NCBI GenBank assembly: GCA_040756875.1
Contig: JBFLYH010000001.1
Coordinates: 480,001 to 544,000 of the forward strand
Source of the DNA: a candidate division FCPU426 bacterium
Lineage (GTDB): Bacteria; Oederibacteriota; JAAXVQ01; JAUVAV01
Length of the DNA stretch: 64,000 bases
Direction of reading: 5' to 3'
The translations under genes were made by a program, and so were the position numbers. Below the pieces are notes generated by a model. The model did no database searches. It saw nothing but the letters and a program-made list of their open reading frames with translations, and was not told where the DNA came from. Each line of letters opens with the position of its first letter. Position 1 is the first letter of the stretch. Shown here piece after piece: positions 11,839-45,663 of this stretch.

Positions 11839-11958
11839 TTAACAGGCCGACGACTATAGTCGCTTGCGTTGCATAGAATACCCCATGAAAAATCAGAAAT
11901 TTTCATGGGGTAACAAGGTGCTAGCGGAACATATATTAATTTTTCAGCACCTTGTTAA
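11839..11958. mobile_element. MITE-like structured repeat, copy 2
   Basis: Bounded by TTAA at both ends; TAACAGG...CCTTGTTA ends; hairpin 11879-11891/11900-11912; about three-quarters identical by hand alignment to the reverse complement of 7689-7805. Confidence 0.72.
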
Positions 11959-11978
11959 ATACCGAAAGGAAATCCGCC

Positions 11979-13127
11979 GTGGCGAACCGCAGACGTTCCA
12001 CCTCAGCTTGGATCTTCATGGCCCGGGGAGCGCTGGCCGCTATCTGCCTGGCAGGGTGGTTGACCGTTGCCGGGGCCGAATCCGCTCCCGCGGGCACCAC
12101 ACCGCAGGCCTCCGCCCAGCCGGCCTTGTCCTCCTCGCCGGCTCCCAAGACCGCAGCCCGCAAGCAGGTGCCCCGCAAGTCTGCGGAGAAGAAAAACCCG
12201 TCGCCGGACCAGTTGCAAAAGCGCAGCTGGGATTTCCAGCACGTGAAGGCGGCGCAGATATCCAAGAATTGGAAATCCCACTCCGGCGAATGGGTGGTGG
12301 GTCCGGAACCCGAGCATCCGGGCAACCAGGTGCTGCGCCAAAAAACCGTAAAGCGCAACTACCAGATGCTGCTAAGCCAAAAAACCTACGCCAATTTCGA
12401 GTTTTCGGCCCGCCTGCGCACGGACAGCTATGAACAAAAGACCTCGAACTGGCAGATGGGCCTGATTTTCAGGATGGCTGACAACCGGCATTATTATAAA
12501 TTCCGGATCACCGCGGCCAACGTGGCCCTGCTGCGCTGCATGCCGCAGCCGGCGACGGTGATCCCGGACGCAGCCGGTGTGACGCCGGTGGTTTCTGCCA
12601 CCGGCCGCAGCGGGAAGCAGGACGAACAGATCGTGCTGATTCTTCCTTTTACCGGCAAAACGGACACCTGGTATACCCTGAGCGCCGCAGGTTACGGCGA
12701 GCGGCTGGTGCTGAAATTGGATGGCCGCGAACTGCGCATGCTGCAGGATTCGGGCATCGGCTGCGGCCGGATCGGCGTTTTTACCTACAAAACCAGAGCC
12801 ATGGCGGACGATTTTCGCTTGTTCTATTACCCGGCGCCGAGCCTCGATTCGGGCATCCAGGTTATCCGCAAGAATTTCTCGCCCCGCCAGGACCGGGAAG
12901 TGATGATTTACTTCGTCAATCCCTCGGCCGGGGAGCTGCAGGTGCAGGTGTTGGACGCCAAAGGCAAAACGTTCCAGCTTTTGACCCGGGGACCGCACAG
13001 CCCGGGGCTGAATTCAGTCACTTGGGACGCCCAAGGATTGCTGGGTGAATTTGCCAAACCCGGTTTATATACCATCCAGTTGACGGTTGGCGACAAGAAA
13101 TACCGCGATACCGTGCGGGTGAAATAA
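11979..13127 (+). CDS. Exported protein with DUF1080/LamG-like beta-sandwich and C-terminal FlgD-Ig/T9SS-CTD-like domain
   Basis: Signal peptide, P/A-rich linker, YANFEFSARLR..GLIFR..GRIGV pattern, C-terminal VTWDAQG...PGLYTIQL; GTG 11979 after AAAGGA. Confidence 0.6.
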   Translation: MANRRRSTSAWIFMARGALAAICLAGWLTVAGAESAPAGTTPQASAQPALSSSPAPKTAARKQVPRKSAEKKNPSPDQLQKRSWDFQHVKAAQISKNWKSHSGEWVVGPEPEHPGNQVLRQKTVKRNYQMLLSQKTYANFEFSARLRTDSYEQKTSNWQMGLIFRMADNRHYYKFRITAANVALLRCMPQPATVIPDAAGVTPVVSATGRSGKQDEQIVLILPFTGKTDTWYTLSAAGYGERLVLKLDGRELRMLQDSGIGCGRIGVFTYKTRAMADDFRLFYYPAPSLDSGIQVIRKNFSPRQDREVMIYFVNPSAGELQVQVLDAKGKTFQLLTRGPHSPGLNSVTWDAQGLLGEFAKPGLYTIQLTVGDKKYRDTVRVK

Positions 13128-32528: not shown

Positions 32529-35081
32529 ATGTGCGGAAAGAAAATGATACTGATGATGCTGTTGGTCGCCGGTCTCGCTCGACCCGTCTGGGCAGAGGAG
32601 ACGGCCTTCCTTGGCGCCCGTTCGGCGGGCATGGCCGGTGCCGGGGAAGCCTACGGCGGGTCCGCAGCCTCCCTGGTGCAAAATCCAGCTGCTTTGGTGC
32701 TGCTGGGTTGGCCGGAAATTGAGCTCGGGTTTGGTCTGCCGGATATGAGCCAACCGCGGCAAACGCAAGGTTTCGGTGCGCTGCCGATCGTAGGGCGGCT
32801 GACTGCTGGCGTGGGGGCCATGGCGTTGCGTTCAGACGCGGAAGGGAACGAGGAGGATTATTATCTATCCCTGGCGTTTCCGCTTTCACGTAACGGCCAA
32901 TTGGCGGCAGGGATCAGCGGCAAATGGCTGTTGCGTTCGCTGCCCGGAGTCGCCGGACGGGCCTCCGGTGCGGGCGTTGATATGGGTCTGTTGTATCAAG
33001 CCTGGCAGGAGGAAAACGGCCGGGGATTAGCATTCGGCGCTTCTCTGATGGATATCCAAACCACATTGCGGCGCAAGGATCAGGAGGTCCGTCTGCCGTT
33101 GCTGGCGCGGGTCGGCGCGGCTTTTCAATTAAACGCCTCCGACGTTCTGGTCGCTTCGTTTGAAAACCGTTCGGAAGATCTGCCCGCCTTCGAGGGTTTT
33201 CAGATTGCCAGGGCCGGATTCGAGCACGGCCAGCCGCTGGGGAATGAATTCCGGCTTTTTCTGCGCGGCGGGTTTCTGCAAACGCTCGGCCAATCAGGGA
33301 CGCTTGCCTTGGGCGCGGGCCTGGCCTGGACGGAATGGCGCCTGGATTACGCCGCCCAGCTTCCCATGGAATTTTATAACACCCGCCATCATCTCGCCCT
33401 CTCCTGGGGATACCAGCGCGCTTTATCCGGACGCATGCCGCAACTGGCGGAATCCATCGAGTCCGAGGTTACTGCCAAACCTTTGACGCCTACGCCCGAG
33501 CCTGACCGGATCGTGTCCGCCCTGGCCGAAGCGGCTGAAATCCAGGAGTATTCCGCTTTTACGCCTCCGACTCCGGAAGTCACCCCCACTCCCACGCCAG
33601 CTCCGCGGCGGATGGCGGAAGAAAAATCCGCCGAGGAAGCCTCCTATCATCTTCCGATTCCGGAAGGGCCGGCCGGAAGCGAGCGCACCAGCTTTGGTTC
33701 CAGCCCTGAAATGCCCGCGATTTTCTCGGGGTCACTCAGCGGCGGCCGCGGCGATTTACGGATCGTCGAGCAGGATCTGCGGTTGCACGTAGTGGTCAAT
33801 CCCTTCTCCCCGAACGGAGATGGACGCCAGGACCGTACGGTTTTTGTCGGCCGGCTGGTGGATGAACGCCTGCCGGTTGCGCGCTGGTTGCTGACCATAG
33901 CCAGAAACGGGGAAGTAATCCGTTTTTTCCGCGGCGGCGCCACGCTGCCCCGCAATCTGGAGTGGAACGGAACGGATCAGCACGAGAAGCGGTTGCCGGA
34001 CGGCGACTATGTCGCCGTGCTGCGCGCGATGGATGAAAACGGCATGGAACTGGCGTCAGCCTCCCAAACGGTCGGCTTGCGCACGACCGCCCACGTCATC
34101 AGCCTGCAGGGGCCTGGCCGGGTTCTGCTGGGGGGCGACAATCCAAACAAAAGCGTCGAATTTGGAGTGCCTGAATTGCGCGGCGGCAGCGATTGGCGCT
34201 TCAGCCTGGTGCACGCCAAGGGGAAGACCGTCTACAGCACCAGCGGAGGGGGGCGCATTCCCGAAACCATCGTTTGGCAACCTGCCAAGGGGGGGCGGCT
34301 GCCGCCGGCCGGCGATTACACCGCACGCTTGAGTTATCTGGACGAGGTGGGACTGCGGGCGGAAACGCGGGTGGAGTTCGAAGTTGCTTATCCTGCCATG
34401 AACCTGGAGATGGGCGTCAATCCCCGCGAATTCAATCCCGGCGAAGCCGGCGAGGCCTGCGTGACTTTTACGCCGGTCTTTGATGGAGGAGTCGCCGTAC
34501 GTTTATGGGAATTGGAAATCTTCAACGCCGATCAAAAGCGGATGCATGCAATGACCGGCAAGGGCGCCCTTCCTTCCGCGATCGCATGGGACGGTTTTCT
34601 CGGCGGGAAGAAAGCTAAAGCCGGCGCGGTCTACCAAGCCGTATTGACCGTCACCACGGCTTTGGGGACCCAGGCTTCGGCCAAATCCGGAATGCTGCAA
34701 TGCGGAGTCGGCGAAGTGACCGGCCAAAAAGCGCTGACCATGAATTTGGTCCAGGTGCGCTTTGCCGCCAATTCCGCGGAGCGGTCCGCCGAAGGCGAAC
34801 AGGCGCTGACGCAAGCCGCGCAGACACTGGAGCGCTATCCCACAAAGTATCTACTTCAGATCATTGGACATTGTTCACCCCGGGAAAAATCAGAACACGC
34901 CCTGGAGCTTTCCCGGACCCGCGCCCAGACGGTAGCCGACTATTTGATCCGGGAAAAGGGGTTGCCCGGAGATAGAATCCAGGTCATCGGCAAGGGCGCT
35001 TCCCAGCCAATATCCAACGAAGAGGATGAGGCTGCCGATGCTAAAAACCGCCGGGTAGAAGTGGTGCTGTTTGCGCAGTAA
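32529..35081 (+). CDS. Outer-membrane protein: PorV/FadL-like barrel + P/T linker + FlgD-Ig repeats + OmpA-like C-terminal domain
   Basis: Signal peptide; GARSAGMAGA..NPAAL; LDYA..HHLALSWGY; NPFSPNGDG; three W.G..G.Y Ig units; LSRTRA..NRRVEV. Confidence 0.75.
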   Translation: MCGKKMILMMLLVAGLARPVWAEETAFLGARSAGMAGAGEAYGGSAASLVQNPAALVLLGWPEIELGFGLPDMSQPRQTQGFGALPIVGRLTAGVGAMALRSDAEGNEEDYYLSLAFPLSRNGQLAAGISGKWLLRSLPGVAGRASGAGVDMGLLYQAWQEENGRGLAFGASLMDIQTTLRRKDQEVRLPLLARVGAAFQLNASDVLVASFENRSEDLPAFEGFQIARAGFEHGQPLGNEFRLFLRGGFLQTLGQSGTLALGAGLAWTEWRLDYAAQLPMEFYNTRHHLALSWGYQRALSGRMPQLAESIESEVTAKPLTPTPEPDRIVSALAEAAEIQEYSAFTPPTPEVTPTPTPAPRRMAEEKSAEEASYHLPIPEGPAGSERTSFGSSPEMPAIFSGSLSGGRGDLRIVEQDLRLHVVVNPFSPNGDGRQDRTVFVGRLVDERLPVARWLLTIARNGEVIRFFRGGATLPRNLEWNGTDQHEKRLPDGDYVAVLRAMDENGMELASASQTVGLRTTAHVISLQGPGRVLLGGDNPNKSVEFGVPELRGGSDWRFSLVHAKGKTVYSTSGGGRIPETIVWQPAKGGRLPPAGDYTARLSYLDEVGLRAETRVEFEVAYPAMNLEMGVNPREFNPGEAGEACVTFTPVFDGGVAVRLWELEIFNADQKRMHAMTGKGALPSAIAWDGFLGGKKAKAGAVYQAVLTVTTALGTQASAKSGMLQCGVGEVTGQKALTMNLVQVRFAANSAERSAEGEQALTQAAQTLERYPTKYLLQIIGHCSPREKSEHALELSRTRAQTVADYLIREKGLPGDRIQVIGKGASQPISNEEDEAADAKNRRVEVVLFAQ

Positions 35082-35124
35082 TCCGCCGGCATCCGTTTCC
35101 CGGATCGGAACCCATTCTCCGGCA

Positions 35125-36018
35125 GTGAAACCCAGGGCGCCGCGTCAATTAGGCCCGCTGGTTCTCCTGCTGGCATCCGTCTCGCTTTCAGCCTGTGCTC
35201 CCTGGCATAAACCTGTTTATCCGCCCCGTTTAGACATCCGCTGGGTTCCCGCGCAGGCCATGGCTGGTCATGCCTTACAATTGGAGGTTCAAGCCCAACC
35301 GGCTGACCTTGAGATTCAGATTTCGGCGGACAGCCAATCTTTAACATTGGCGGCCCAGGCAAACCCTGCACAACCAGGCTGCTTTAGAGGGTACTTGGCT
35401 ATACCACTGGAAAACGTTCCAACGTCCTTCAGTCTGACGCTTACAGCTGTTTCGAAACCAGGGGAAGTGCTCCTGAGCAAGCTATACACCATCCCGATGC
35501 TGCCGAGGCCACAGGATTTGATCACCAACCTGTGGATCAGAAATATATCCCAGTATGATTATTCGGGAGAATCGGCGGTCATGGCGGCAGCGCGACGTCA
35601 AGCTTCGTCAGTTCCGCGTACCGCTTGGGACTTTTTATCCTGGCCACTGCAGGGTAGGATTAGTGAACAGTTTGGAGTCATCAGGAATTATAACCGAGGA
35701 ATAAGAAACTCACGGCATACTGGTTTGGACATTGCTGCTGCGCAAGGAACCATCGTCCAGGCTCCGGGCCCGGGAATCGTTCTATTATCAGAAGAATTTA
35801 AAGCCCACGGGAAGACAATCCTGATCAATCATGGTTACGGCGTGGTGAGCACCTTTTTACATTTGAGCAAAATGAATATCACGTCAGGTCAAACGGTCAG
35901 CCAAAATGAAGCAATCGGAGAAGTTGGTTCAACCGGCGCTTCGACAGGTCCTCATCTGCATTTTCAAGTTAATATTAATGGAATTCCCATCGATCCTCGA
36001 GATTTATTCCAGGAATAA
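35125..36018 (+). CDS. M23 family metallopeptidase, probable lipoprotein
   Basis: LSAC lipobox; HTGLD, HGYG, STGPHLH. Confidence 0.9.
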   Translation: MKPRAPRQLGPLVLLLASVSLSACAPWHKPVYPPRLDIRWVPAQAMAGHALQLEVQAQPADLEIQISADSQSLTLAAQANPAQPGCFRGYLAIPLENVPTSFSLTLTAVSKPGEVLLSKLYTIPMLPRPQDLITNLWIRNISQYDYSGESAVMAAARRQASSVPRTAWDFLSWPLQGRISEQFGVIRNYNRGIRNSRHTGLDIAAAQGTIVQAPGPGIVLLSEEFKAHGKTILINHGYGVVSTFLHLSKMNITSGQTVSQNEAIGEVGSTGASTGPHLHFQVNINGIPIDPRDLFQE

Positions 36019-36206
36019 TCATTAAAAATAAGCGTTTATAAAATTATGCAAACGCAGATTATGTCCCTTGAAACTTAATCCTGAAATTAAAATAATATCC
36101 TTTATTTTCAAAGATATTATTATAAGTACTGGAATAAAACACCAGGCATTATTAATTTATCAAAATATATTATAATTTAATTGCCATAATAATTTATTAA
36201 TATTAT

Positions 36207-36234
36207 TTGCAAAAGTTAAAACCTATGATATACT
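36207..36234 (+). promoter_or_regulatory. Extended -10 sigma70-type promoter in a very AT-rich intergenic region
   Basis: TTGCAA (36207-36212), TG at 36226-36227, TATACT (36229-36234). Confidence 0.6.
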
Positions 36235-36291
36235 TGAATTAAGAGAAAAAATATTTGCTTAAATTCTTGCAATGAGGGGAGATGAAAGAAG

Positions 36292-37359
36292 ATGAGGAGA
36301 TGCTCAACCTACCCGTTGGGAGTAATCTTCGTTATCACCCTCGCCTCGTTGTTATGGACCGGTTGCGGCAAGAATGTAATGGGCCCAACCGCTCCCGCCA
36401 CCCTAGTCGCGCAGAAAGTCAGTAGCATTCAGACGGATCCAGTTGCCGGAGCAGAAGCGGATAGTTCTGGGACCAATGGAGTTGAAGCAGCCTGCCACGG
36501 CGGCGGTGGCGGCGGTGGCCACCATCAGGGATGGACGGAACAACTCCGACATCATTATTTAGGAATGTGCAACCACGGGTTGCTGCATAAATTTGCCATG
36601 TTGGTCATCGGCGGTTGGTTCCAAGACCAGGCTTTGACCAATACCGTGGAGAACATCATCACTTCCAAACTCTTTAAAATCGTCATCTTTAAATGTGGAA
36701 TCGGTCCTATCCTCTTTTGGCAAAGTCTGCTGATGGTGTCTGAAACCTGGTATCCTGGCCTGGATACCAATCCAGCCCAATGCGATCCGGAAATCACGCT
36801 CCTGCCTTATCGTTGGAATCGCTGCAGCGGTTTTTATGGCGACTATCTGTCGGAGTGGGGCAATGGCCGCGGATACCACCTTCACAGCGTAACGCCTAAA
36901 AATGATATTGTGGAGCTGTTTACGTCTTCATCTTTGAACAACATTTATCATAATGAAAAGCCGATCATTACCTTGCAGTGGAATTACAGTTTCATCGCCG
37001 ATCCGGTCAACAATCCCACGGGTAAAAACAAAAGCCTGTTCCTGAGTTTGGCCAACGAATATTATATCAACCGTCTTACGCTGTTTTATGCCGAACCCCG
37101 TTTTTATAAAAACGGCGATGAAAGACTGGAGGCCGAGGAAGTCTGGTCTTCCACGGCAAACAAGAGCGGCCGGTGCAAAATCGTGACACGAAACGGCGAT
37201 TTGTTGAACATGGATCTGGAGTTCGACGCGAACGGAGTCGGCGGCGGAACAGTTGACATCCGGAGTTGGTCCGGTCAAGTCAACCACTATGTTTTTGTCG
37301 TGAACGGATACGATCACGGTTATTACACGAAAAACGGCGGGAAAAAGCACCATTTTTAA
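36292..37359 (+). CDS. Hypothetical lipoprotein with Gly/His-rich segment
   Basis: GAGGGGAG RBS-like tract upstream; WTGC lipobox; CHGGGGGGGHHQG; no family recognised. Confidence 0.75.
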   Translation: MRRCSTYPLGVIFVITLASLLWTGCGKNVMGPTAPATLVAQKVSSIQTDPVAGAEADSSGTNGVEAACHGGGGGGGHHQGWTEQLRHHYLGMCNHGLLHKFAMLVIGGWFQDQALTNTVENIITSKLFKIVIFKCGIGPILFWQSLLMVSETWYPGLDTNPAQCDPEITLLPYRWNRCSGFYGDYLSEWGNGRGYHLHSVTPKNDIVELFTSSSLNNIYHNEKPIITLQWNYSFIADPVNNPTGKNKSLFLSLANEYYINRLTLFYAEPRFYKNGDERLEAEEVWSSTANKSGRCKIVTRNGDLLNMDLEFDANGVGGGTVDIRSWSGQVNHYVFVVNGYDHGYYTKNGGKKHHF

Positions 37360-37383
37360 ACTGCGTTTTTATCTTTGGCAAGC

Positions 37384-37424
37384 GGCCCAGGACTGGTAAG
37401 ATAAAGTTCTGGGCCTTGTTTTTT
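37384..37424 (+). terminator. Possible intrinsic terminator
   Basis: GGCCCAGGAC/GTTCTGGGCC stem with 12-nt loop followed by TTGTTTTTT. Confidence 0.5.
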
Positions 37425-37473
37425 CAGGAGCCTACCTTCGGTTGACCAGCCTGGAAACAGGGAGTTCAGGGGA

Positions 37474-39753
37474 ATGAGCGGTCGAAGCGTTCTGCATACG
37501 ATCCTGACGGGGATTGCGTTGGCGGGAATGCTTTTATCCGTCGGTGCCTTGCCGGCTTGGTCGGATCCTCAGAATCCCAAAACCTATTATTCGGGTTCCA
37601 ATGCCCGGAGCATCGCGTTGGATACCTATCGCAATCGCTTGTACCTCATCAGGAACACCACGCCGAATATCCGGGTTTTCACTCTCGACAGCCAGGGCGA
37701 TACCACTTTAGCGGTAAATGATTTTACCATGGGAACCAACAGCCTGGCGATAAGCCTGGACGCCCGTCGCAACCGCATGTACCTGGCGCAAAATACGATT
37801 GGCGCCGGCCAGGAAGTGCAAGTGGTGACGCTAGACCCAAACGGAGATCCGTCAGGTAACCTTGGCCGGGATACCTCCTCGTCCTATGCACAGGCCTTGG
37901 CGTTGGATCCACAACGCAACCGTCTGTATGTGGGTTTGGCGGACAATACCGTGGGATTGGCAGTTGTCAGCCTGAATTCCTCCGGTGATGCGATCGGACA
38001 CACAACCCACCTGACCAATAACCGGGTGAATGCCCTGACCCTGGATGCGGCCCGCAACAAGCTTTATTTGGGATATAACAACGGCGCCGTGGGCACCTGC
38101 AATCTGGACGCTTTTGGCGATGTGGCAGCCATCAACAATACCCGCACGGCCGGGAGCGGGAACGTGACCAGCCTGGCGCTGAACAGCTTTTTAAACTGCC
38201 TCTATGTGGCTGCTGGAAACAATGTTCTTTATACCTTCCCGTTAGAGTCCGAAGCTTCAGCAGACCCAGGAGAACTGGCCGGGTCGGCCAACTCATTCAT
38301 CGTCACCGGCATACCCATATGCTTGTTAGCTGATGCGACGCGACAGCGTCTGTATTTCGGGATGGCTGAAACCGGCACGTCGGATTTACGCTGGGTTTCC
38401 CTGGACGCTTCTGGGATCCCGACCGGCTCCGTTACCTCGGCCACCGCTGATGATCTGTGGGGCATGGCCATGGATGCGGAACGCCGGAAATTTTATACTG
38501 TTGCGGATGCAACCAGCCGTTATTACGACCTTTCAGAATTGGGGATGCCGTTTTTAATGATCAATCACGGCGCCTCGACCACCACCCAGACCGATGTCGA
38601 GTTGCATTGGAGCCTGCCCAACCCGCATTTTGCCCTGGTGGACGGGACGTCGGACCTAGTCAACTACCAATTCCCGGTCACTTTTACCGCTAATACGGTT
38701 TTCGATCAGTGGCATTCAACGGATGACGAGCGCTGGTGCAATGTGGCCGGGGCCCGCGCCACCACCCTGACCGTTAAAGCCCAGCTGACAGGCGGGGCGG
38801 GATTAAAAAGAGTCCGTGTTTGGTTCATGGAAGACGCAGCTGCTGTGAACGGAGGAGCGGTTTCTCATTACCGGGAAGCCTTGATTACCCTGTCTGGCGA
38901 TACACCGACTTACACTCCGACCTTTTCCCATACACCCACGATTTCAGCGACACCGACGCATACCGGCACCCCGACGGCCACGTGCACACGCACCGCCAGT
39001 TTGACGCCCAGCCCGACGCCAACGCCTTCCATAACCGGCACGGCCACGGATACTGCCACGCGGACTCCGACCTGGACGCCTTCCGCGACCTTTACCCCGA
39101 CGCCTTCCGCCACTTTTACCCCGACGCCTTCCGCCACTTTTACGCCCACGCCCACCACCACGTTCACATCCACGCCGTCCGCGACCGGCACTTTCACCGG
39201 TACGTCGACCTCCAGCCAAACGCCGACACCCAGCTCCAGCGCCACGCCCTCGCGGACTCCGACCCTCACCTCGACGCCAACCCCAACCGGTACGTTCACA
39301 GGAACGGCAACGATTTCTCCCACCTCTACTGATACACCCGTGGTCAGCCCGACCCCCACGTTGACCGTCACCCTGACAGCGACGATCACGCCCACGCGCA
39401 CCATCACGCCAACCATCACGATGACGCCGACGCAGACGCCCACGCTGCCGCCCACGGCCACGCCGACGCCGGCAACGCTTTTTTACCTGGATAAAAACCA
39501 ATTTATGCCTTCGCGGGAACGGTTAAACCTGAAAGTGGGCCTGCTGTCAGGACAAACGGCTGATATCAGGATTTACACCTTGTCCGGCCGGCTGCTCCGC
39601 TCTTGGCAGGTGCCTCCGCTGCCCGGCGGATATCTGCGTTTGGAATGGGATGGGCGTAACCAGAGCGGGGAACCCGTGGCTTCCGGAATTTATTTCGTGG
39701 TTTTCGAGGCGCCGGATTATAAAGTGGTCAGAAAAGTGCTGGTGATCCGATGA
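37474..39753 (+). CDS. Secreted beta-propeller protein with Thr/Pro-rich stalk and C-terminal FlgD-Ig/T9SS type A CTD-like domain
   Basis: Signal peptide; repeated ALD..RNRLY blades; ~190-aa TP/TAT stalk; IRIYTLSGRLLR..WDGRNQSGEPVASGIYFV..KVLVIR. Confidence 0.8.
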   Translation: MSGRSVLHTILTGIALAGMLLSVGALPAWSDPQNPKTYYSGSNARSIALDTYRNRLYLIRNTTPNIRVFTLDSQGDTTLAVNDFTMGTNSLAISLDARRNRMYLAQNTIGAGQEVQVVTLDPNGDPSGNLGRDTSSSYAQALALDPQRNRLYVGLADNTVGLAVVSLNSSGDAIGHTTHLTNNRVNALTLDAARNKLYLGYNNGAVGTCNLDAFGDVAAINNTRTAGSGNVTSLALNSFLNCLYVAAGNNVLYTFPLESEASADPGELAGSANSFIVTGIPICLLADATRQRLYFGMAETGTSDLRWVSLDASGIPTGSVTSATADDLWGMAMDAERRKFYTVADATSRYYDLSELGMPFLMINHGASTTTQTDVELHWSLPNPHFALVDGTSDLVNYQFPVTFTANTVFDQWHSTDDERWCNVAGARATTLTVKAQLTGGAGLKRVRVWFMEDAAAVNGGAVSHYREALITLSGDTPTYTPTFSHTPTISATPTHTGTPTATCTRTASLTPSPTPTPSITGTATDTATRTPTWTPSATFTPTPSATFTPTPSATFTPTPTTTFTSTPSATGTFTGTSTSSQTPTPSSSATPSRTPTLTSTPTPTGTFTGTATISPTSTDTPVVSPTPTLTVTLTATITPTRTITPTITMTPTQTPTLPPTATPTPATLFYLDKNQFMPSRERLNLKVGLLSGQTADIRIYTLSGRLLRSWQVPPLPGGYLRLEWDGRNQSGEPVASGIYFVVFEAPDYKVVRKVLVIR
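39076..39147 (+). repeat. Three tandem 24-bp coding repeats (TPSATFTP)
   Basis: ACGCCTTCCGC(G/C)AC(C/T)TTTAC(C/G)CC(G/C) x3 within the Thr/Pro stalk. Confidence 0.9.
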
Positions 39754-41975
39754 GACGCCGCTTGTTTGCCATCCTGCTGGCAGGAAGCCTGATGACTTCG
39801 TCGACATGGTGCTTGGCCGGCGAAGGAACCACCGGGGCGGATTTTCTAAGGCTGGTTCCGGGCGCGCGGGCCGCGGCCCTGGCTGGCAGTTATTCCGCCT
39901 TGGGCCTGGATGCGGAATCAATGTTTGCAAATCCGGCGGGGATCCTGGGGCTGCTGAACCCGCAAGTGGGCGTGAGTCATTTATCCTGGTGGGAAGGCAT
40001 TACCTACGACGCATTGTGGGGCGTGCAACCCTTGGGAGAAGCAGGCGCTATCGGATTGTCCGCCGCCTGGCTGAATGTCGCCCCCTTCAACAGCACCGAA
40101 GACCCGGCAGCCCCTGCAGGCCAGGCGTGGAACATCCTTTGCGGCGGAAGCTATGCCTATAAATTCGGCCGTTCCCTGGCTTGCGGCGCACAACTCAAGG
40201 CGCTTTTGTCACGGCTGGGCGATTCCCAATCATGGGGTGTAGCGTTGGACGCAGGCGCCCAGTATTTTCTCAGCAATGATCAATTGGTATTCTCCGGCGT
40301 TGTCAGGGAAGTGGGGATCATGGCACCCTTCCAAGCGGTTGCGGACCCGCTGCCCCTGGCAGGGATTGTCGGCCTGGGATACCTATTGTGGCCTGACGAA
40401 CCCTGGCGGTTGTCCCTGTCCGCGGAGAGCGTTTTTTCGCCGGCCGGGAAACCCGCCTTCAGCTTGGGAGTGGAGGGTTGGGCGGAGAATTTTCTGGCTT
40501 TGCGGGCTGGTGTCAAATCCGATCAAGATTCCGGGGACTGGCTGACGCTCGGAGCGGGGCTGCGTTGGCAGGGCGTGCATCTGGATTATGCGTTGACACC
40601 CTTGGGCGGCATGGGTTTAGTGCACCGCTTTTCACTGGCGTATGATTTCGGCAGCCAGCGGCGGTTGGCCAGGCCCAAACTTAAAGTCGTGATGAGCGTG
40701 CGGGAATTCGTTTATCCGGACGGTGATCCTGGATATAACGTCCAATTGGTGCCGACCGCTGTGGTCGCTTCTGGACTCGACCACTGGGACGCCTTGATTC
40801 AGGAGACAGCCACGAAACGCGTGGTGTACCGGGCCAGCGGCGAGAAACAGCTTCCGATGGCTTTGACCTGGAAAGGGGTGGACGAAGCCGGCAAACGCGT
40901 GAATGTGGAAGGATATTACCTATATCAAATGCGGGTGGTGGACCAGCAGGGTTACGTTGCAAAAGTTGAGGGTGAAATCCTGCCCATTTCGATCACGGCG
41001 CTTCCCAAACTTAAAGCGTCGCCGAGGGATATTTTTGCCGGTCAAGTTACTTTCCGCCCCAAAACCAGCGAGGATTTGCAGGAGTGGTCCATCGAAATCG
41101 TCGACGCCAACGGCCGTGTGCTTAAACGTTACCTGGGTCAGGGAACCATTCCCAAGGATTTTGCCTGGGACGGCACCGATGAAAAACAGAGACAGGTAGC
41201 GGTGAAGACCGGTTATCATTTCGTCCTTAAAGTCAGGGACCGTCAGAACAATGAAATGAGGAGCGCGTCGCCTCTGATCGTGATCGATGCAGGCACCAAG
41301 GCTTTCACCGATCAGCCCGCGACCCTGGACGAACAGGTCCCGTTTCATTTCGAACCCACGGATATCAAGATCAAACGCTGGGTTTTCAACATCCTCGACA
41401 CGGGCAGCGGCAAAATCGTCCGCACCTACGAAGGCACGGCGCCTTTGCCTGAAACCTTGGTTTGGGATTCCAAGGATGAACAGGGCCGGCGTGTGTCTTC
41501 GCGTGAACAGTACAGCTACGTCCTGCAAATGCAGGACTCTCTCGGCAACGTTTGGCAGCAGGCCGCACCCATTCACGCCACGGCGGTTCGCGTGTTAACT
41601 TCTGCCGGCGCGGGCCCGGCGCTGAAGGTGGAGGAAATTCTTTTCGACTTCAACCAGGCCGAGCTTAAAACCGCGGTATTCGAAAAACTCCGCAAAATTG
41701 CGGATTTGGTCCGGTCCCATTCGGGCAAAGGCGTCCAGGTGATGATTGAGGGACATACGGATGAAATCGGCACGGACGCCTACAACAAGGAATTGTCACT
41801 GAAACGAGCGAAAATGGTGATGCGTTACCTGGTGGAGGATGAAGCCCTGCCGTCATCTTTGATGCAGACTCAGGGCTATGGCAAGAGCAGGCTGATCTAT
41901 ACTGGCGATGCGCCCGATAAGCGGGCGAAAAACCGGCGGGTGGAAGTGACCCTGTTTCTGCCCGGCGAGCAATAA
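39750..41975 (+). CDS. PorV/PorQ-family barrel fused to FlgD-Ig repeats and OmpA peptidoglycan-binding domain
   Basis: GTTGADFLRLVPGARAAALAG..NPAG; LDYALTP.G.MG.VHRFSLAYDF; three W(K/D)(G/S).DE units; FDFN..EGHTD..LSLKRA..NRRVE. Confidence 0.82.
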   Translation: MRRRLFAILLAGSLMTSSTWCLAGEGTTGADFLRLVPGARAAALAGSYSALGLDAESMFANPAGILGLLNPQVGVSHLSWWEGITYDALWGVQPLGEAGAIGLSAAWLNVAPFNSTEDPAAPAGQAWNILCGGSYAYKFGRSLACGAQLKALLSRLGDSQSWGVALDAGAQYFLSNDQLVFSGVVREVGIMAPFQAVADPLPLAGIVGLGYLLWPDEPWRLSLSAESVFSPAGKPAFSLGVEGWAENFLALRAGVKSDQDSGDWLTLGAGLRWQGVHLDYALTPLGGMGLVHRFSLAYDFGSQRRLARPKLKVVMSVREFVYPDGDPGYNVQLVPTAVVASGLDHWDALIQETATKRVVYRASGEKQLPMALTWKGVDEAGKRVNVEGYYLYQMRVVDQQGYVAKVEGEILPISITALPKLKASPRDIFAGQVTFRPKTSEDLQEWSIEIVDANGRVLKRYLGQGTIPKDFAWDGTDEKQRQVAVKTGYHFVLKVRDRQNNEMRSASPLIVIDAGTKAFTDQPATLDEQVPFHFEPTDIKIKRWVFNILDTGSGKIVRTYEGTAPLPETLVWDSKDEQGRRVSSREQYSYVLQMQDSLGNVWQQAAPIHATAVRVLTSAGAGPALKVEEILFDFNQAELKTAVFEKLRKIADLVRSHSGKGVQVMIEGHTDEIGTDAYNKELSLKRAKMVMRYLVEDEALPSSLMQTQGYGKSRLIYTGDAPDKRAKNRRVEVTLFLPGEQ

Positions 41976-42089: not shown

Positions 42090-43127
42090 ATGGTCATTGA
42101 CGGGGGTTTGGAATTCGAACGGCCATTAGTGGAACTGGAGCGGCGGATTGAAGAATTGCGCAGCTTCACGAACGGCCAACAATTGAATTTGGACCAGGAA
42201 CTGGCCCAAATGGAGGAACGCGCACGTAAACTGCGGGAGGAAATTTACTCCAACCTGAGTCCCTGGCAGATTGTCCAGGTCAGCCGGCATCCCCAGCGGC
42301 CGCATACCCTGGATTACATCCAGAATATCTTTACGAATTTCCAGGAACTGCACGGAGACCGGGCTTTCATCGACGACCGTGCCATGGTCGGCGGAGTCGC
42401 CTGGCTTGACGACCGCCCTTGCGTGGTCATGGGCACGCAGAAGGGCAAGGATACTAAAGAGAACCTCATCCATAATTTCGGCCTGCCGCTTCCTGAGGGG
42501 TATCGTAAAGCGTTGCGCCTGATGAAATTCGCGGAAAAATTCCAGTTGCCGGTCATCACCTTCGTCGATACGGCCGGGGCTTTTCCGGGCATGGAAGGCG
42601 AAGAACGCGGCGTGGCCGAAGCCATTGCCAGGAATTTGCGCGAAATGTCCATTCTCCGCACCCCCATCCTCGTGGTTGTCATTGGGGAAGGAGGCAGCGG
42701 AGGGGCGCTGGGCATCGGCGTGGGAGATACCGTGCTGATGTTATCCAACGCCATGTACACGGTTATCACACCTGAAGGGTGCGCGGCCATTTTGTGGAAA
42801 GACCGGGCTGAGGCCCCGAAGGCGGCGGAAATTCTAAAACTGACGGCACCTCATTTAAAAAGCCTGGACATTATCGACGAGATCATCGAGGAACCCCTGG
42901 GCGGGGCGCACCGCGAGCCGAAAATAGTCACTGAACGCGTCAAACTCAAGCTTGTAGAACATATGGAACGGTTGTCCCGGATCCCATCGGAGCAGTTGTT
43001 GGAGTTGCGTTATCAGAAATACCGTCGCATGGGGTTTCTGCAATCCACGGAACCGCTCCCAGAAACTGGTGAGGGGTCATCGCCAGGCCAGGAGTCAACC
43101 GCTGCCATCAATCATGCCCAATCCTAA
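42090..43127 (+). CDS. accA: Acetyl-CoA carboxylase carboxyltransferase alpha
   Basis: LEFERP, RHPQRP, PEGYRKALR, GEGGSGGA; TATAAT at 42046-42051 upstream. Confidence 0.98.
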   Translation: MVIDGGLEFERPLVELERRIEELRSFTNGQQLNLDQELAQMEERARKLREEIYSNLSPWQIVQVSRHPQRPHTLDYIQNIFTNFQELHGDRAFIDDRAMVGGVAWLDDRPCVVMGTQKGKDTKENLIHNFGLPLPEGYRKALRLMKFAEKFQLPVITFVDTAGAFPGMEGEERGVAEAIARNLREMSILRTPILVVVIGEGGSGGALGIGVGDTVLMLSNAMYTVITPEGCAAILWKDRAEAPKAAEILKLTAPHLKSLDIIDEIIEEPLGGAHREPKIVTERVKLKLVEHMERLSRIPSEQLLELRYQKYRRMGFLQSTEPLPETGEGSSPGQESTAAINHAQS

Positions 43128-43878
43128 ATCGCTTTACAGCCCTTCTCATCACAACCACATCCCGTTGTCCAGCCTGTTCGCTTTGAATGTAATGCTTTGT
43201 CTAGTTTTCTGGTCTTTTTCTCCTGCTGCCCATTCGGCCGATCCGGCGGAAGTCGGAGACCAAAAAATGGTTATTGTCATCGACCCGGGACACGGTGGAC
43301 GGGATTCTGGAATCGAAAGCCAACCGGCTGATCCCTGGAGCGAAAAAGTCCTGATGATGGAACTGGCCCGCACCCTTGAAAACCGTCTGGAAAAGAAGGG
43401 ATTCCAGGTTTTTTTAACGCGCACCGGGGACGAATCCTGTTCACTTCTAGAACGGATGAGCCTGGCCAACCGGAAAAATGCCACAGTGTTTATCAGCTTG
43501 CATGTGGGCGATCGCCTGGGGAACCGAAATCCACCTGCGAGGTTTTTTATTCATCGCGTGCCGACATACAAGGAAAAATCCGCGTCCTTGAACAAGGGAC
43601 GGCTGGTGGCGTGGGAGACTGCGCAGCAAAATCTCAAACTGCAAAGCCGCAAAGTAGCCGAAGCCTTGCGCGCGGCCTGGGAAGGGCAGACGGCGGAAAT
43701 AATTGAAATACCCATGGCTGTTCTGGTCGGTGTCAATCATCCGGCGGTTTTGGCGGAATTACCTCCGCCCGGCGGCGGGAAACAGGAGAAAAAACCAGGC
43801 CCGGAAGTCTGGCGGAGTGAGGCCGAGCGCTTGGCCAGCGGGATTGAGCGGTATCTGTCAAGCCGGGGGAACAAATGA
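43114..43878 (+). CDS. N-acetylmuramoyl-L-alanine amidase (Amidase_3)
   Basis: IDPGHGG, EK, LTR, FISLH, PAVLAE. Confidence 0.88.
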   Translation: MPNPKSLYSPSHHNHIPLSSLFALNVMLCLVFWSFSPAAHSADPAEVGDQKMVIVIDPGHGGRDSGIESQPADPWSEKVLMMELARTLENRLEKKGFQVFLTRTGDESCSLLERMSLANRKNATVFISLHVGDRLGNRNPPARFFIHRVPTYKEKSASLNKGRLVAWETAQQNLKLQSRKVAEALRAAWEGQTAEIIEIPMAVLVGVNHPAVLAELPPPGGGKQEKKPGPEVWRSEAERLASGIERYLSSRGNK

Positions 43879-44435
43879 CGACCAAACACCGCTCTGAATG
43901 GATTCCTTCGGTTTTGGCAGTGACCGGGGTGGCTGTTTTGGCTGCTCTGGGTTGGTGGTTTGTCAGCTGGTCAGGTCAATCTCGACTTGGATCGGCGAAC
44001 GCGCCGGGAGATTCACCGCTGCGAACGGCCAAACTCTTTTTCGCGCTGGATAATCCGCGTCATTTCAAGGAAACGTCGGTTCGCATTCCGACGTCGGAGC
44101 TACTGCGTGTTCGGGTCAAACAACTGCTGGAGCAATTTGGCCCGGAGGCGGCGAATTCGCCCTTCGGAAACCTTCCGCTGCCGTCGAAAGTGCGCGCGGT
44201 CTATCTGCGGGGTAGTGGAATGCTGGTGGTTGACTTTGAAAAAACCGTCCAGTATAATCAATCCGTCAGCGCCCAGGAAGAACTTGCGGCTGTTCGTTCG
44301 CTGTTGAAAACCTTGGTGATGAATTTTCCCGAAGTCAAGGCCGTGAAATTCTTAATCGGTGGGCAGGAAGCGGAAGCGCTGGCCGGTCATGTGGATATTT
44401 CCAGAGCATTGTGCTTGGATGATGTCACTTGGTAG
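43875..44435 (+). CDS. GerMN domain protein
   Basis: N-terminal TM, LFF, VVDF, SLLKTL..FPEVKAVKFLIGG..LAGHVD; common partner of amidase. Confidence 0.85.
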   Translation: MTTKHRSEWIPSVLAVTGVAVLAALGWWFVSWSGQSRLGSANAPGDSPLRTAKLFFALDNPRHFKETSVRIPTSELLRVRVKQLLEQFGPEAANSPFGNLPLPSKVRAVYLRGSGMLVVDFEKTVQYNQSVSAQEELAAVRSLLKTLVMNFPEVKAVKFLIGGQEAEALAGHVDISRALCLDDVTW

Positions 44436-44463
44436 CTTTCATCACTGAGAGGGGACTACCGGT

Positions 44464-44913
44464 ATGAGCCCAACCACGAAAATCACGCCTGCGCAGACGG
44501 CGGGCCAGAAGCCAAGCGGATGCCTGCCTGGCGCGGCCATCCTGGCTTTATTGCTGCTGATTCTAATGGTGGCCGCAGCCCTCAGCCTGTATATGAAACC
44601 CACAAATGTGTTAAAGTATGGCTTGGTGACAGCGTTGAATGAAACCGAGACCCGCCTGGCCAGGGAAAAAACCCTTTCACCCGAGCAATATCAGGAATTG
44701 AGAGTTTACGTGACAGCGGCCCAATCCTTTATCGCCAATCAGAAACTCGACCGGCCAAACCTGATGCGCGCCAGCCTGGTCATCAAAGCCTTTCGCCAAG
44801 CCTTGCGTGATAACGTGATTGACCGCGACGAACTGGCGGCCATTCGCGCGGCTGTTTGGCGGGCGAATATACCCTTGCCCGTTAAACCCAGGAACGCACC
44901 GCCAAAACGCTGA
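44464..44913 (+). CDS. Hypothetical single-pass membrane protein
   Basis: GAGAGGGG RBS; SGCL followed by a TM helix. Confidence 0.7.
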   Translation: MSPTTKITPAQTAGQKPSGCLPGAAILALLLLILMVAAALSLYMKPTNVLKYGLVTALNETETRLAREKTLSPEQYQELRVYVTAAQSFIANQKLDRPNLMRASLVIKAFRQALRDNVIDRDELAAIRAAVWRANIPLPVKPRNAPPKR

Positions 44914-44932
44914 TTCGTCCATTGGAAAAATC

Positions 44933-45007
<75 letters not shown>

Positions 45008-45141
45008 TCTGCTCCTTCCATAAAATTCCTGGGCTTCAGTCCGGGGATGGTATTATGGAATGTTGTTTTATTGCGGAAGAAAGCCCGGAAATTTTGTCGG
45101 GGAGGCTTCCGCTCATCATCTGGAAGGGACGATCGACGGCA

Positions 45142-45663
45142 GTGAAACATTTTCGGCGGTTGTTGGTCATTTTGCTGGTCATGCACGTTGCACCGCTTAT
45201 TCCAGCTTCGATTTGTGAGGCGAAGAAAAAGGCCCGTTATTCCGTCAAACCGGACGAGGTTCAGACCGTTCAGGCCGACACCCACCGGCGGCAATGGGGA
45301 ATGGGATTGATCATCGGCGATCCCACGGGGGTCACCGTGAAGTACTGGCTGGATCGGCGCATGGCTTGGGATTTTGCCCTGGGTTCGCAGCTTTCCTTGG
45401 CGGGCGTAGGGGTCCATGCGGATTATTTATTCCACCTGCCGGTGATCACCGATACTCCCGAAGCGCCCTTATTCATCGGCGGCGGGGCTTTTCTGGGCGC
45501 AGGCGGCAACCAGGTGGCTGCCGGGCTTCGCGGCGTGGTAGGCATGACGTACATTTTTTCCGAACCCTTTGATATATTTATGCAGCTTTCTCCCACCTTG
45601 GCGATTTCCCCGGATTTCAATTTTTATTTTACTTTTTCGATCGGCGGGCGGGTCTATTTATAA
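45142..45663 (+). CDS. Small outer-membrane beta-barrel protein (DUF3996/BAPKO-like)
   Basis: Signal peptide; GMGLIIGDPTGVTVKYW, HADYL, terminal GGRVYL strand. Confidence 0.7.
   Translation: MKHFRRLLVILLVMHVAPLIPASICEAKKKARYSVKPDEVQTVQADTHRRQWGMGLIIGDPTGVTVKYWLDRRMAWDFALGSQLSLAGVGVHADYLFHLPVITDTPEAPLFIGGGAFLGAGGNQVAAGLRGVVGMTYIFSEPFDIFMQLSPTLAISPDFNFYFTFSIGGRVYL

Follow-up and report, generated by a model that had tools for sequence, protein, structure and literature searches.

Cargo-dedicated, wall-anchored shuttles have already been described for the T9SS (type IX secretion system) of Bacteroidota, where type B cargo proteins form complexes with PorP and PorE, as in PG1035-PorP-PorE of P. 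gingivalis and Fjoh_3952-3951-3950 of F. johnsoniae (PMC9143113, PMC12618676). All type A C-terminal domains (CTDs) are said to use one PorV shuttle (PMC12618676), and the T9SS is placed in the Fibrobacteres-Bacteroidetes-Chlorobi (FCB) group (PMC11205867). Here, we describe a T9SS-related locus in a 64,000-nucleotide stretch of DNA, referred to as the window (contig C1:480001-544000 of a genome of 3.22 Mb in 7 contigs, with a completeness rating of 100%), in which the gene for a predicted secreted cargo protein is followed by that for fusion B, a PorV-like barrel extended by immunoglobulin-like (Ig) domains and a putative wall-binding OmpA-like domain. A paralogous protein, fusion A, is encoded farther upstream. 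All five open reading frames (ORFs) proposed for the locus by the first-pass annotation, which was made without database searches, were re-found in the window (Table 1), and the ATGA overlap between cargo stop and fusion B start at 39750-39753 is real.

The traits that the locus shares with the type B cargo-PorP-PorE complexes are (i) a cognate 14-strand barrel gene directly downstream of the cargo gene, (ii) surface anchoring that is probably non-covalent, and (iii) an OmpA-type domain whose proposed role is to attach the complex to peptidoglycan. It differs in that (i) the barrel and the wall-binding domain of fusion B form one chain through three FlgD-type Ig domains, whereas PorE is a separate TPR/propeller/CRD/OmpA lipoprotein that was not detected as such here, (ii) the barrel is of the PorV rather than the PorP/SprF type, (iii) the CTD is type-A-like, (iv) no GldL, GldM or GldN is detected, and (v) the host lies outside Bacteroidota. 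The PorV-type barrel, the type-A-like CTD and the single-chain design are what is new in this wall-anchored shuttle. The premise from which the first-pass annotation started, namely that PorV stands alone and that PorE is a separate anchor, was incomplete in omitting the type B shuttles. We read fusion B as a dedicated, cell-wall-tethered carrier and anchor for the protein encoded just upstream, with a probability of about two in three. By analogy, it is best read as a one-chain counterpart of the PorP-PorE anchor, built with a PorV barrel and belonging to a variant of the T9SS without the known motor.

Fusion B passes the PorV_fam model (NF033709, PorV/PorQ family) with 118.9 bits against a cut-off of 90, and its FlgD_ig and OmpA matches (PF00691, 77 bits) are both over their cut-offs. 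The AlphaFold2 (AF2) model, built from 109 sequences, has a pLDDT of 92.4 and a pTM of 0.79; in keeping with the anatomy first proposed, it comprises a barrel of 14 strands, three Ig domains and one OmpA domain, and the N-terminal segment sits in the barrel lumen. Compared with 48,161 chains, the model matches PorV (6H3I_F) with a Z of 33.9 (root-mean-square deviation (rmsd) 3.4, 282 residues aligned) and the best FadL (3DWO) with a Z of 28.8 (rmsd 3.0, 265 aligned), and the top Foldseek ranks are the PorV chains 8GL6_F and 6H3I_F. As modeled, the barrel is PorV-like rather than FadL-like. An even number of barrel strands puts both barrel ends in the periplasm; the Ig/OmpA tail of fusion B is therefore expected there. 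The OmpA domain shares its fold with known OmpA/Pal/PorE-type domains (Z 15.9-19.4; 3TD3, 5U1H, 6TOP), and fusion B also carries, as D671, N679 and R686, the Asp/Asn/Arg triad at the spacing by which PorE holds peptidoglycan (PMC7192894). This triad is kept in fusion B at 11/11 relatives' loci, and the domain probably binds peptidoglycan. Known domains of this type are attached to a barrel of 8 strands or to a lipid anchor; here, an Ig spacer joins the domain to a 14-strand barrel.

The cargo ends in a CTD of about 90 amino acids (aa) that is type-A-like, carries a near-terminal Lys and passes FlgD_ig (30.7, cut-off 27). Its N-terminal part is probably a beta-propeller, to judge from profile matches that are sub-threshold only (YncE 7-blade, E 3.6e-6; Lactonase, E 0.005), and a stalk of 193 aa, 71% of them T, P or S, separates it from the CTD. 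The proposed secreted propeller with a T9SS type A/FlgD sorting domain is thus borne out in its signal peptide and FlgD-type CTD and is less firm in its propeller and in its T9SS profile, whose cut-off was just missed.

A complex prediction for the fusion B barrel (aa 24-304) and the cargo CTD scored 0.92, and the best of three controls 0.00; the score mark is reached by 116 of 157 solved pairs versus 2 of 215 mismatched pairs. Because PorV-CTD structures have already been solved, this pass speaks for likeness, not for binding or specificity. The runs agree in at least 95% of contacts, with a partner pLDDT of at least 88. The predicted contacts, which include the CTD Lys, center on barrel residues 113-117 in the strand 3-4 loop and on the N-terminal segment. 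In the solved RemZ-PorV complex, the strand 3-4 loop and the near-terminal Lys of the CTD are likewise at the interface (PMC10994853), and F113, S115 and T116 of this loop are invariant in 19/19 homologues. The cargo CTD is predicted to bind the extracellular loops of fusion B as in PorV; fusion B is the one barrel of the two for which the suggested complex was modeled.

Far from standing alone, the locus is one of 31 cargo-barrel pairs in the source genome. PorV_fam has 44 matches in 42 ORFs (a 43rd PorV-like ORF, found with a local profile, is excluded from the barrel counts), and a CTD profile seeded with the window cargo alone converged on 101 proteins, 97 of which have a hydrophobic N-terminal stretch and 96 a near-terminal Lys. 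A CTD gene lies directly upstream of 31/42 PorV-like genes versus 44/2248 other long ORFs in an approximate gene set (Fisher p 3e-40), as expected if the pairing recurs, and 16 of the 31 pairs have an ATGA overlap by our own ORF calls. Another described counterpart is PorV of F. johnsoniae with its type A CTDs and SprA (6H3I, 8GL6; PMC10994853), which the locus resembles in fold, in a SprA homologue and in the predicted contact of Lys and strand 3-4 loop. There, however, a single general PorV shuttles every type A cargo and passes it on to PorU, whereas here 42 paralogues occur, most of them cargo-coupled and 12 extended by an OmpA foot, and PorU is not detected. A second cargo and fusion B pair, with 50% and 47% identity, lies at C2:383578-388100 (-) without fusion A, the M23 gene or the lipoprotein gene, so cargo and fusion B are duplicated as a unit. 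This copy adjoins ORFs that, by eye, resemble restriction-modification genes. Thr-x-Thr repeat stalks occur in 69/101 CTD proteins and are possible glycosylation sites. A split of the CTDs by regular expression into long and short types, which gave 12/19 for paired and 10/60 for orphan CTDs (p 0.009), was set aside as too crude a pattern to rely on.

PorV-like matches occur in 31/31 genomes searched, with 10-55 each. Fusion B itself is matched at E<=1e-40 in 10/10 genomes of its own family, 3/4 of the sister family and 2/16 beyond the order. Twelve loci from 11 of these 15 genomes were examined, leaving out two whose contig ends at the gene and two distant ones; two full-length matches from another search are not counted separately, and the kin genomes are not independent. 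The cargo lies directly upstream of fusion B at 11/12 of these loci, which extends the proposed pairing to relatives, and fusion A is present at 7/7 loci long enough. More widely, 95 of the best 150 representatives combine barrel, Ig and OmpA domains, with 1-14 Ig repeats by a local profile. Representatives P0052, P0061, P0063, P0072, P0084 and others are long proteins (1100-1965 aa) of the form barrel-Ig(8-14)-OmpA, and such Atlas clusters are mostly from Spirochaetota. The length of the Ig spacer may track the distance between outer membrane and wall.

The labels of the homologues include Ca. Firestonebacteria (a 48% orthologue), FCPU426, Spirochaetales (a partial protein) and Elusimicrobiota (Ig and OmpA, no barrel), and Atlas clusters point to Goldiibacteriota, Spirochaetota, Poribacteria and WOR-3. 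A PorP-OmpA fusion cluster in Bacteroidota (Atlas, score 0.85) is a lead only. In a RecA tree, the source genome falls outside the Bacteroidota clade (100/100), as the first-pass annotation had supposed, with the deep nodes open; the host most likely belongs in the Firestonebacteria/FCPU426/Goldbacteria neighborhood (PMC7031533). The genome contains lptFG and lol genes, and the host is therefore taken to be diderm.

Signal peptides and the ATGA overlap suggest that cargo and barrel would be made from translationally coupled genes and exported by Sec. By analogy, the cargo would then cross the outer membrane through the SprA homologue, and its CTD is predicted to be caught, as in PorV, on the extracellular loops of the fusion B barrel and on the barrel's N-terminal segment. 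Because no PorU sortase is detected, the cargo would stay non-covalently bound, with its propeller shown on the Thr/Pro stalk. The three periplasmic Ig domains would space the barrel from the OmpA-type domain, whose binding to peptidoglycan would fix the pair.

Several observations weigh against this reading. The cargo CTD falls one bit short on TIGR04183 (22.0 vs a cut-off of 23), although an orthologue reaches 24.4. The predicted complex resembles solved PorV-CTD structures, so its pass may stem from those structures and is no evidence of cognate specificity. A wall-tethered barrel must both dock on SprA and leave it, and the motor that releases carrier and cargo from SprA in F. johnsoniae is not detected here (PMC10994853). 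The correlation of CTD and barrel similarities (Mantel r 0.35, p 0.0003; r 0.33 without five near-duplicates) speaks for the reading, but co-duplication explains this signal equally well. No barrel lies behind 70/101 CTD proteins and no cargo before 11/42 barrels; barrels fused to OmpA are no more often cargo-paired (8/12) than the others (23/30), and the full Asp/Asn/Arg triad is found in only 6/12 OmpA fusions. One fusion B orthologue, at L122 (G010:C80), has no cargo upstream.

The first-pass annotation had cast both fusions as wall-anchored, cargo-dedicated PorV-like receptors. For fusion B, the PorV-like fold, predicted CTD binding, intact triad, recurrence and the presence of SprA favor that role; for fusion A it is not supported as proposed. 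The two are only about 24% identical, over their C-terminal parts. Fusion A passes the OmpA profile, scores only 43.7 bits on PorV_fam (cut-off 90) and is below the FlgD_ig cut-off; its signal peptide and, in the AF2 model (90 sequences, pLDDT 84.9, pTM 0.45), its barrel of 14 strands, its three Ig domains and its OmpA domain agree with the proposed anatomy, to which a disordered linker at about aa 300-415 has to be added. The barrel is about as close to FadL (Z 30.9, rmsd 2.5, 266 aligned) as it is to PorV (Z 30.0, rmsd 3.3, 274 aligned). The segment over its strand 3-4 loop has 20 residues (16-22 in 7 orthologues) versus 29-39 in 37/42 paralogues. This short loop was rejected as proof that fusion A binds no CTD, since 3/4 short-loop barrels among the 42 are cargo-paired. 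In the wall-binding triad, the orthologues keep Asp in 5/7, Asn in 0/7 and Arg in 7/7 cases, although the OmpA fold itself is present. No CTD gene precedes fusion A in the window, and the seven relatives' loci with fusion A contain no CTD-ending ORF besides the cargo; in 6/7 of them, as in the window, a thioesterase-like gene lies upstream of fusion A. The two fusions were rejected as equivalent receptors because fusion A has no adjacent CTD cargo, a FadL/PorV tie and a degenerate triad. Fusion A is most likely a diverged paralogue that serves as an outer-membrane-to-wall tether or as the receptor of a non-adjacent partner.

A tether is also the first alternative to be weighed for the fusions in general: they could be structural links between outer membrane and peptidoglycan that substitute for OmpA, with the CTD protein only a cap and display incidental. 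This is the preferred reading for fusion A and, overall, an unlikely one. It is favored by the fact that 12/16 OmpA-domain matches in the genome fall within PorV-like ORFs, 4 of these 12 without cargo upstream, by the wide occurrence of the barrel-Ig-OmpA architecture, whose variable repeat number fits an adjustable spacer, and by the proposal that PG1035 is a PorP cap (PMC9143113). The 12/16 count, with no PorE detected, also counts in favor of fusion B as a carrier and anchor. A mere tether does not account for the invariant loop residues of fusion B at the predicted CTD site or for its coupling to one cargo family across two families of the order, and the degenerate triad of fusion A weakens a tether role exactly where the cargo is lacking.

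The suggested search for T9SS core genes had a mixed outcome. A SprA homologue of 2111 aa passes TIGR04189 (224.2 vs 200), and a SprA-like match is found in 28/31 genomes, 7/31 being over the cut-off in the genome search. In the source genome, the SprA gene is unlinked to any cargo-barrel pair and has housekeeping neighbors. GldM (PF12081, GldM_1st), GldL (PF22827, GldL_N) and GldN (PF19841) were each detected in 0/31 genomes, with 3/4 control genomes, taken from named loci, positive for each; the one negative among the four motor controls is labeled Chlorobiota. No genome search was made for GldK, SprE/PorW, SprT/PorT, PorD or PorZ. The PorU model is over its cut-off in 0/31 genomes, in a search that scored at most 17 candidates per genome and had no positive control. 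PorP/SprF (PF11751) gave nothing over the cut-off (E 0.004 on one other paralogue) and PorE (NF052230) gave single-domain partial matches only (best 62 vs 600 bits), the built-in control also failing the cut-off in both searches. With no motor, GldN ring protein or sortase detected in these searches, the system falls outside the canonical T9SS, although it reads as a T9SS-like cargo anchor.

A C25 peptidase protein of 1188 aa with fn3/Ig repeats and its own CTD (C2:430911-434477; L004:6912-10478, -) was rejected as PorU because its score is 84 vs 420 bits, the protease domain is N-terminal, and few relatives were seen to have it. It reads as a gingipain-like cargo. At C1:470154-477397 (L155:8155-15395), a PorV-like barrel with a FlgD domain, lying behind a 1939-aa CTD cargo, is followed by genes for a 1059-aa TPR protein, ExbB, two ExbD and TonB_C (Pfam); this ExbB-ExbD-ExbD-TonB operon is a candidate substitute motor for release from SprA.

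These searches bear on a second alternative, a conventional T9SS whose motor, hub and sortase have diverged beyond detection and in which the fusions would be standard shuttles that have gained a foot. As SprA is barely over its cut-off, smaller parts could escape detection; a C25 peptidase with a CTD does exist, and the motor searches covered GldL, GldM and GldN but not GldK. We nevertheless regard this account as improbable, given that GldM_1st, GldN and GldL_N are missed in all 31 genomes by models that recover 3/4 controls, that PorU, with at most 17 candidates scored per genome, is over the cut-off in none of them and that the C25 protein departs from PorU in score, domain order and distribution. 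A SprA-free, two-partner route, in which each barrel exports its own cargo, is very unlikely. The one-to-one gene coupling with its frequent ATGA overlaps, the unlinked SprA gene and the undetected motor are in its favor, but a 14-strand barrel whose lumen contains an N-terminal segment is too small for cargos of up to 3125 aa, POTRA and passenger architecture are absent, SprA is widely kept, and 70 CTD proteins have no neighboring barrel. Least credible is the idea that the barrels are FadL-type channels for the uptake of hydrophobic molecules, fed by adjacent secreted enzymes: despite the common superfamily, the shared NPA motif, the tie of fusion A and the FadL-like reading of spirochaete barrels (PMC8407342, 10.1101/2025.01.03.631275), fusion B lies 5 Z units nearer PorV and has a predicted CTD interface, the partners share a CTD rather than an enzyme class, and the short loops lack the long substrate-capturing loops of FadL (target lengths 404-444 vs about 280 aa here).

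The resemblance to FadL/TodX and to TP0548, TP0859 and TP0865 of Treponema pallidum extends to the 14-strand plugged barrel, the NPA motif and a periplasmic C-terminal extension (PMC8407342), with fusion A equally close to FadL and PorV. The Treponema extensions are, however, helical/TPR, and the accessible text of that report describes no Ig spacer, OmpA domain or CTD cargo (PMC8407342). PorV-like or FadL-like barrels of spirochaetes have been noted in reports whose accessible parts give no secretion reading (10.1101/2025.01.03.631275, PMC8407342, PMC13749626). The literature covered contained no PorV-Ig-OmpA fusion and no cargo-paired PorV expansion outside the FCB group; supplements, whose distribution tables could already list such genomes, and most subscription papers were outside that coverage.

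Returning to fusion B as a wall-tethered carrier, a broader scheme can be put forward tentatively, at somewhat less than even odds. The candidate phylum would run a T9SS-derived display system without GldLM motor or sortase, with dozens of one-cargo PorV barrels as final anchors, a subset of which would carry an Ig spacer and a wall-binding foot. The work of the rotary motor, drawing the pair off SprA, could be taken over by the foot as it captures peptidoglycan, or by a co-opted ExbBD-TonB motor. The barrel-Ig(n)-OmpA chassis (1-14 repeats) would extend to spirochaetes and other phyla and could be ancestral to the Bacteroidota T9SS. The presence of SprA and of about forty PorV barrels, largely cargo-coupled, in a lineage outside the FCB group in which neither motor nor sortase is detected challenges the placement of the T9SS in that group and the statement that a single shuttle serves all type A cargo (PMC11205867, PMC12618676). 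The single-chain barrel-spacer-OmpA fusion lends independent support to the static, wall-anchored cargo-shuttle model, which is still partly speculative. The two-gene unit is suited to testing cognate CTD recognition, the need for a motor in SprA release, and programmable surface display.

Table 1. Features of the locus, in window positions; residue ranges refer to the encoded proteins.
Feature	Position	Strand	Length	Description
Fusion A	32529-35081	+	850 aa	ORF position confirmed; signal peptide; 14-strand FadL/PorV-superfamily barrel, aa ~23-296; disordered linker, ~115 aa; three Ig domains of the FlgD type, aa ~417-725; OmpA-like domain, aa ~736-849; triad Ser/Ala/Arg
M23 metallopeptidase, probable lipoprotein (LSAC)	35071-36018	+	315 aa	overlaps fusion A end; PF01551, 103 bits
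Lipoprotein, no family	36292-37359	+	355 aa	directly upstream of cargo
Cargo	37474-39753	+	759 aa	signal peptide; beta-propeller (probable); stalk rich in Thr and Pro, aa ~476-668; T9SS/FlgD CTD, type-A-like
Cargo CTD	39475-39750	+		near-terminal Lys K754, predicted to touch fusion B barrel loop residues 113/115
Fusion B	39750-41975	+	741 aa	ATGA overlap with cargo; signal peptide; PorV-like barrel of 14 strands, aa 24-304; three Ig domains of the FlgD type, aa ~310-616; OmpA-like domain, aa ~624-736, carrying the full triad D671/N679/R686

Two genes lie between fusion A and the cargo. The M23 peptidase is as first described, with a domain over the cut-off, HTGLD and HLH motifs and a lipobox that makes it a probable lipoprotein. 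It was rejected as a core assembly factor because it is missing in 2/8 informative relatives (kept in 6/8) and four other M23 proteins are encoded elsewhere in the source genome; we keep it as accessory. The 355-aa lipoprotein has no Pfam/NCBIfam match, no usable Atlas match and seven sequence matches including itself. Its gene is directly upstream of the cargo in 9/9 relatives' loci long enough, and the lipobox Cys is kept in the orthologues. GC content is 47.5% over this gene (window 36001-38000) versus 55-61% around it, though the gene is conserved in relatives. A promoter scan gave 13 sites vs 5.5 expected, some of them within the 273-bp and 114-bp gaps, which suggests more than one transcription unit at the locus and is no evidence of function.

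Elsewhere in the genome, one gene run at L003:12061-19930 (C1 about 1.002-1.03 Mb) encodes a 7689-aa giant protein, a 322-aa PorV-like barrel and an NHL propeller, together with a LysM protein of 1067 aa that weakly matches SprA. Another CTD-ending protein of 391 aa, with no PorV-like gene behind it, is encoded at window 11952-13127. Just downstream of the locus, after accA, window 43069-45663 contains further envelope genes, namely those for Amidase_3, a protein with a GerMN domain and a candidate small barrel that resembles DUF3996.

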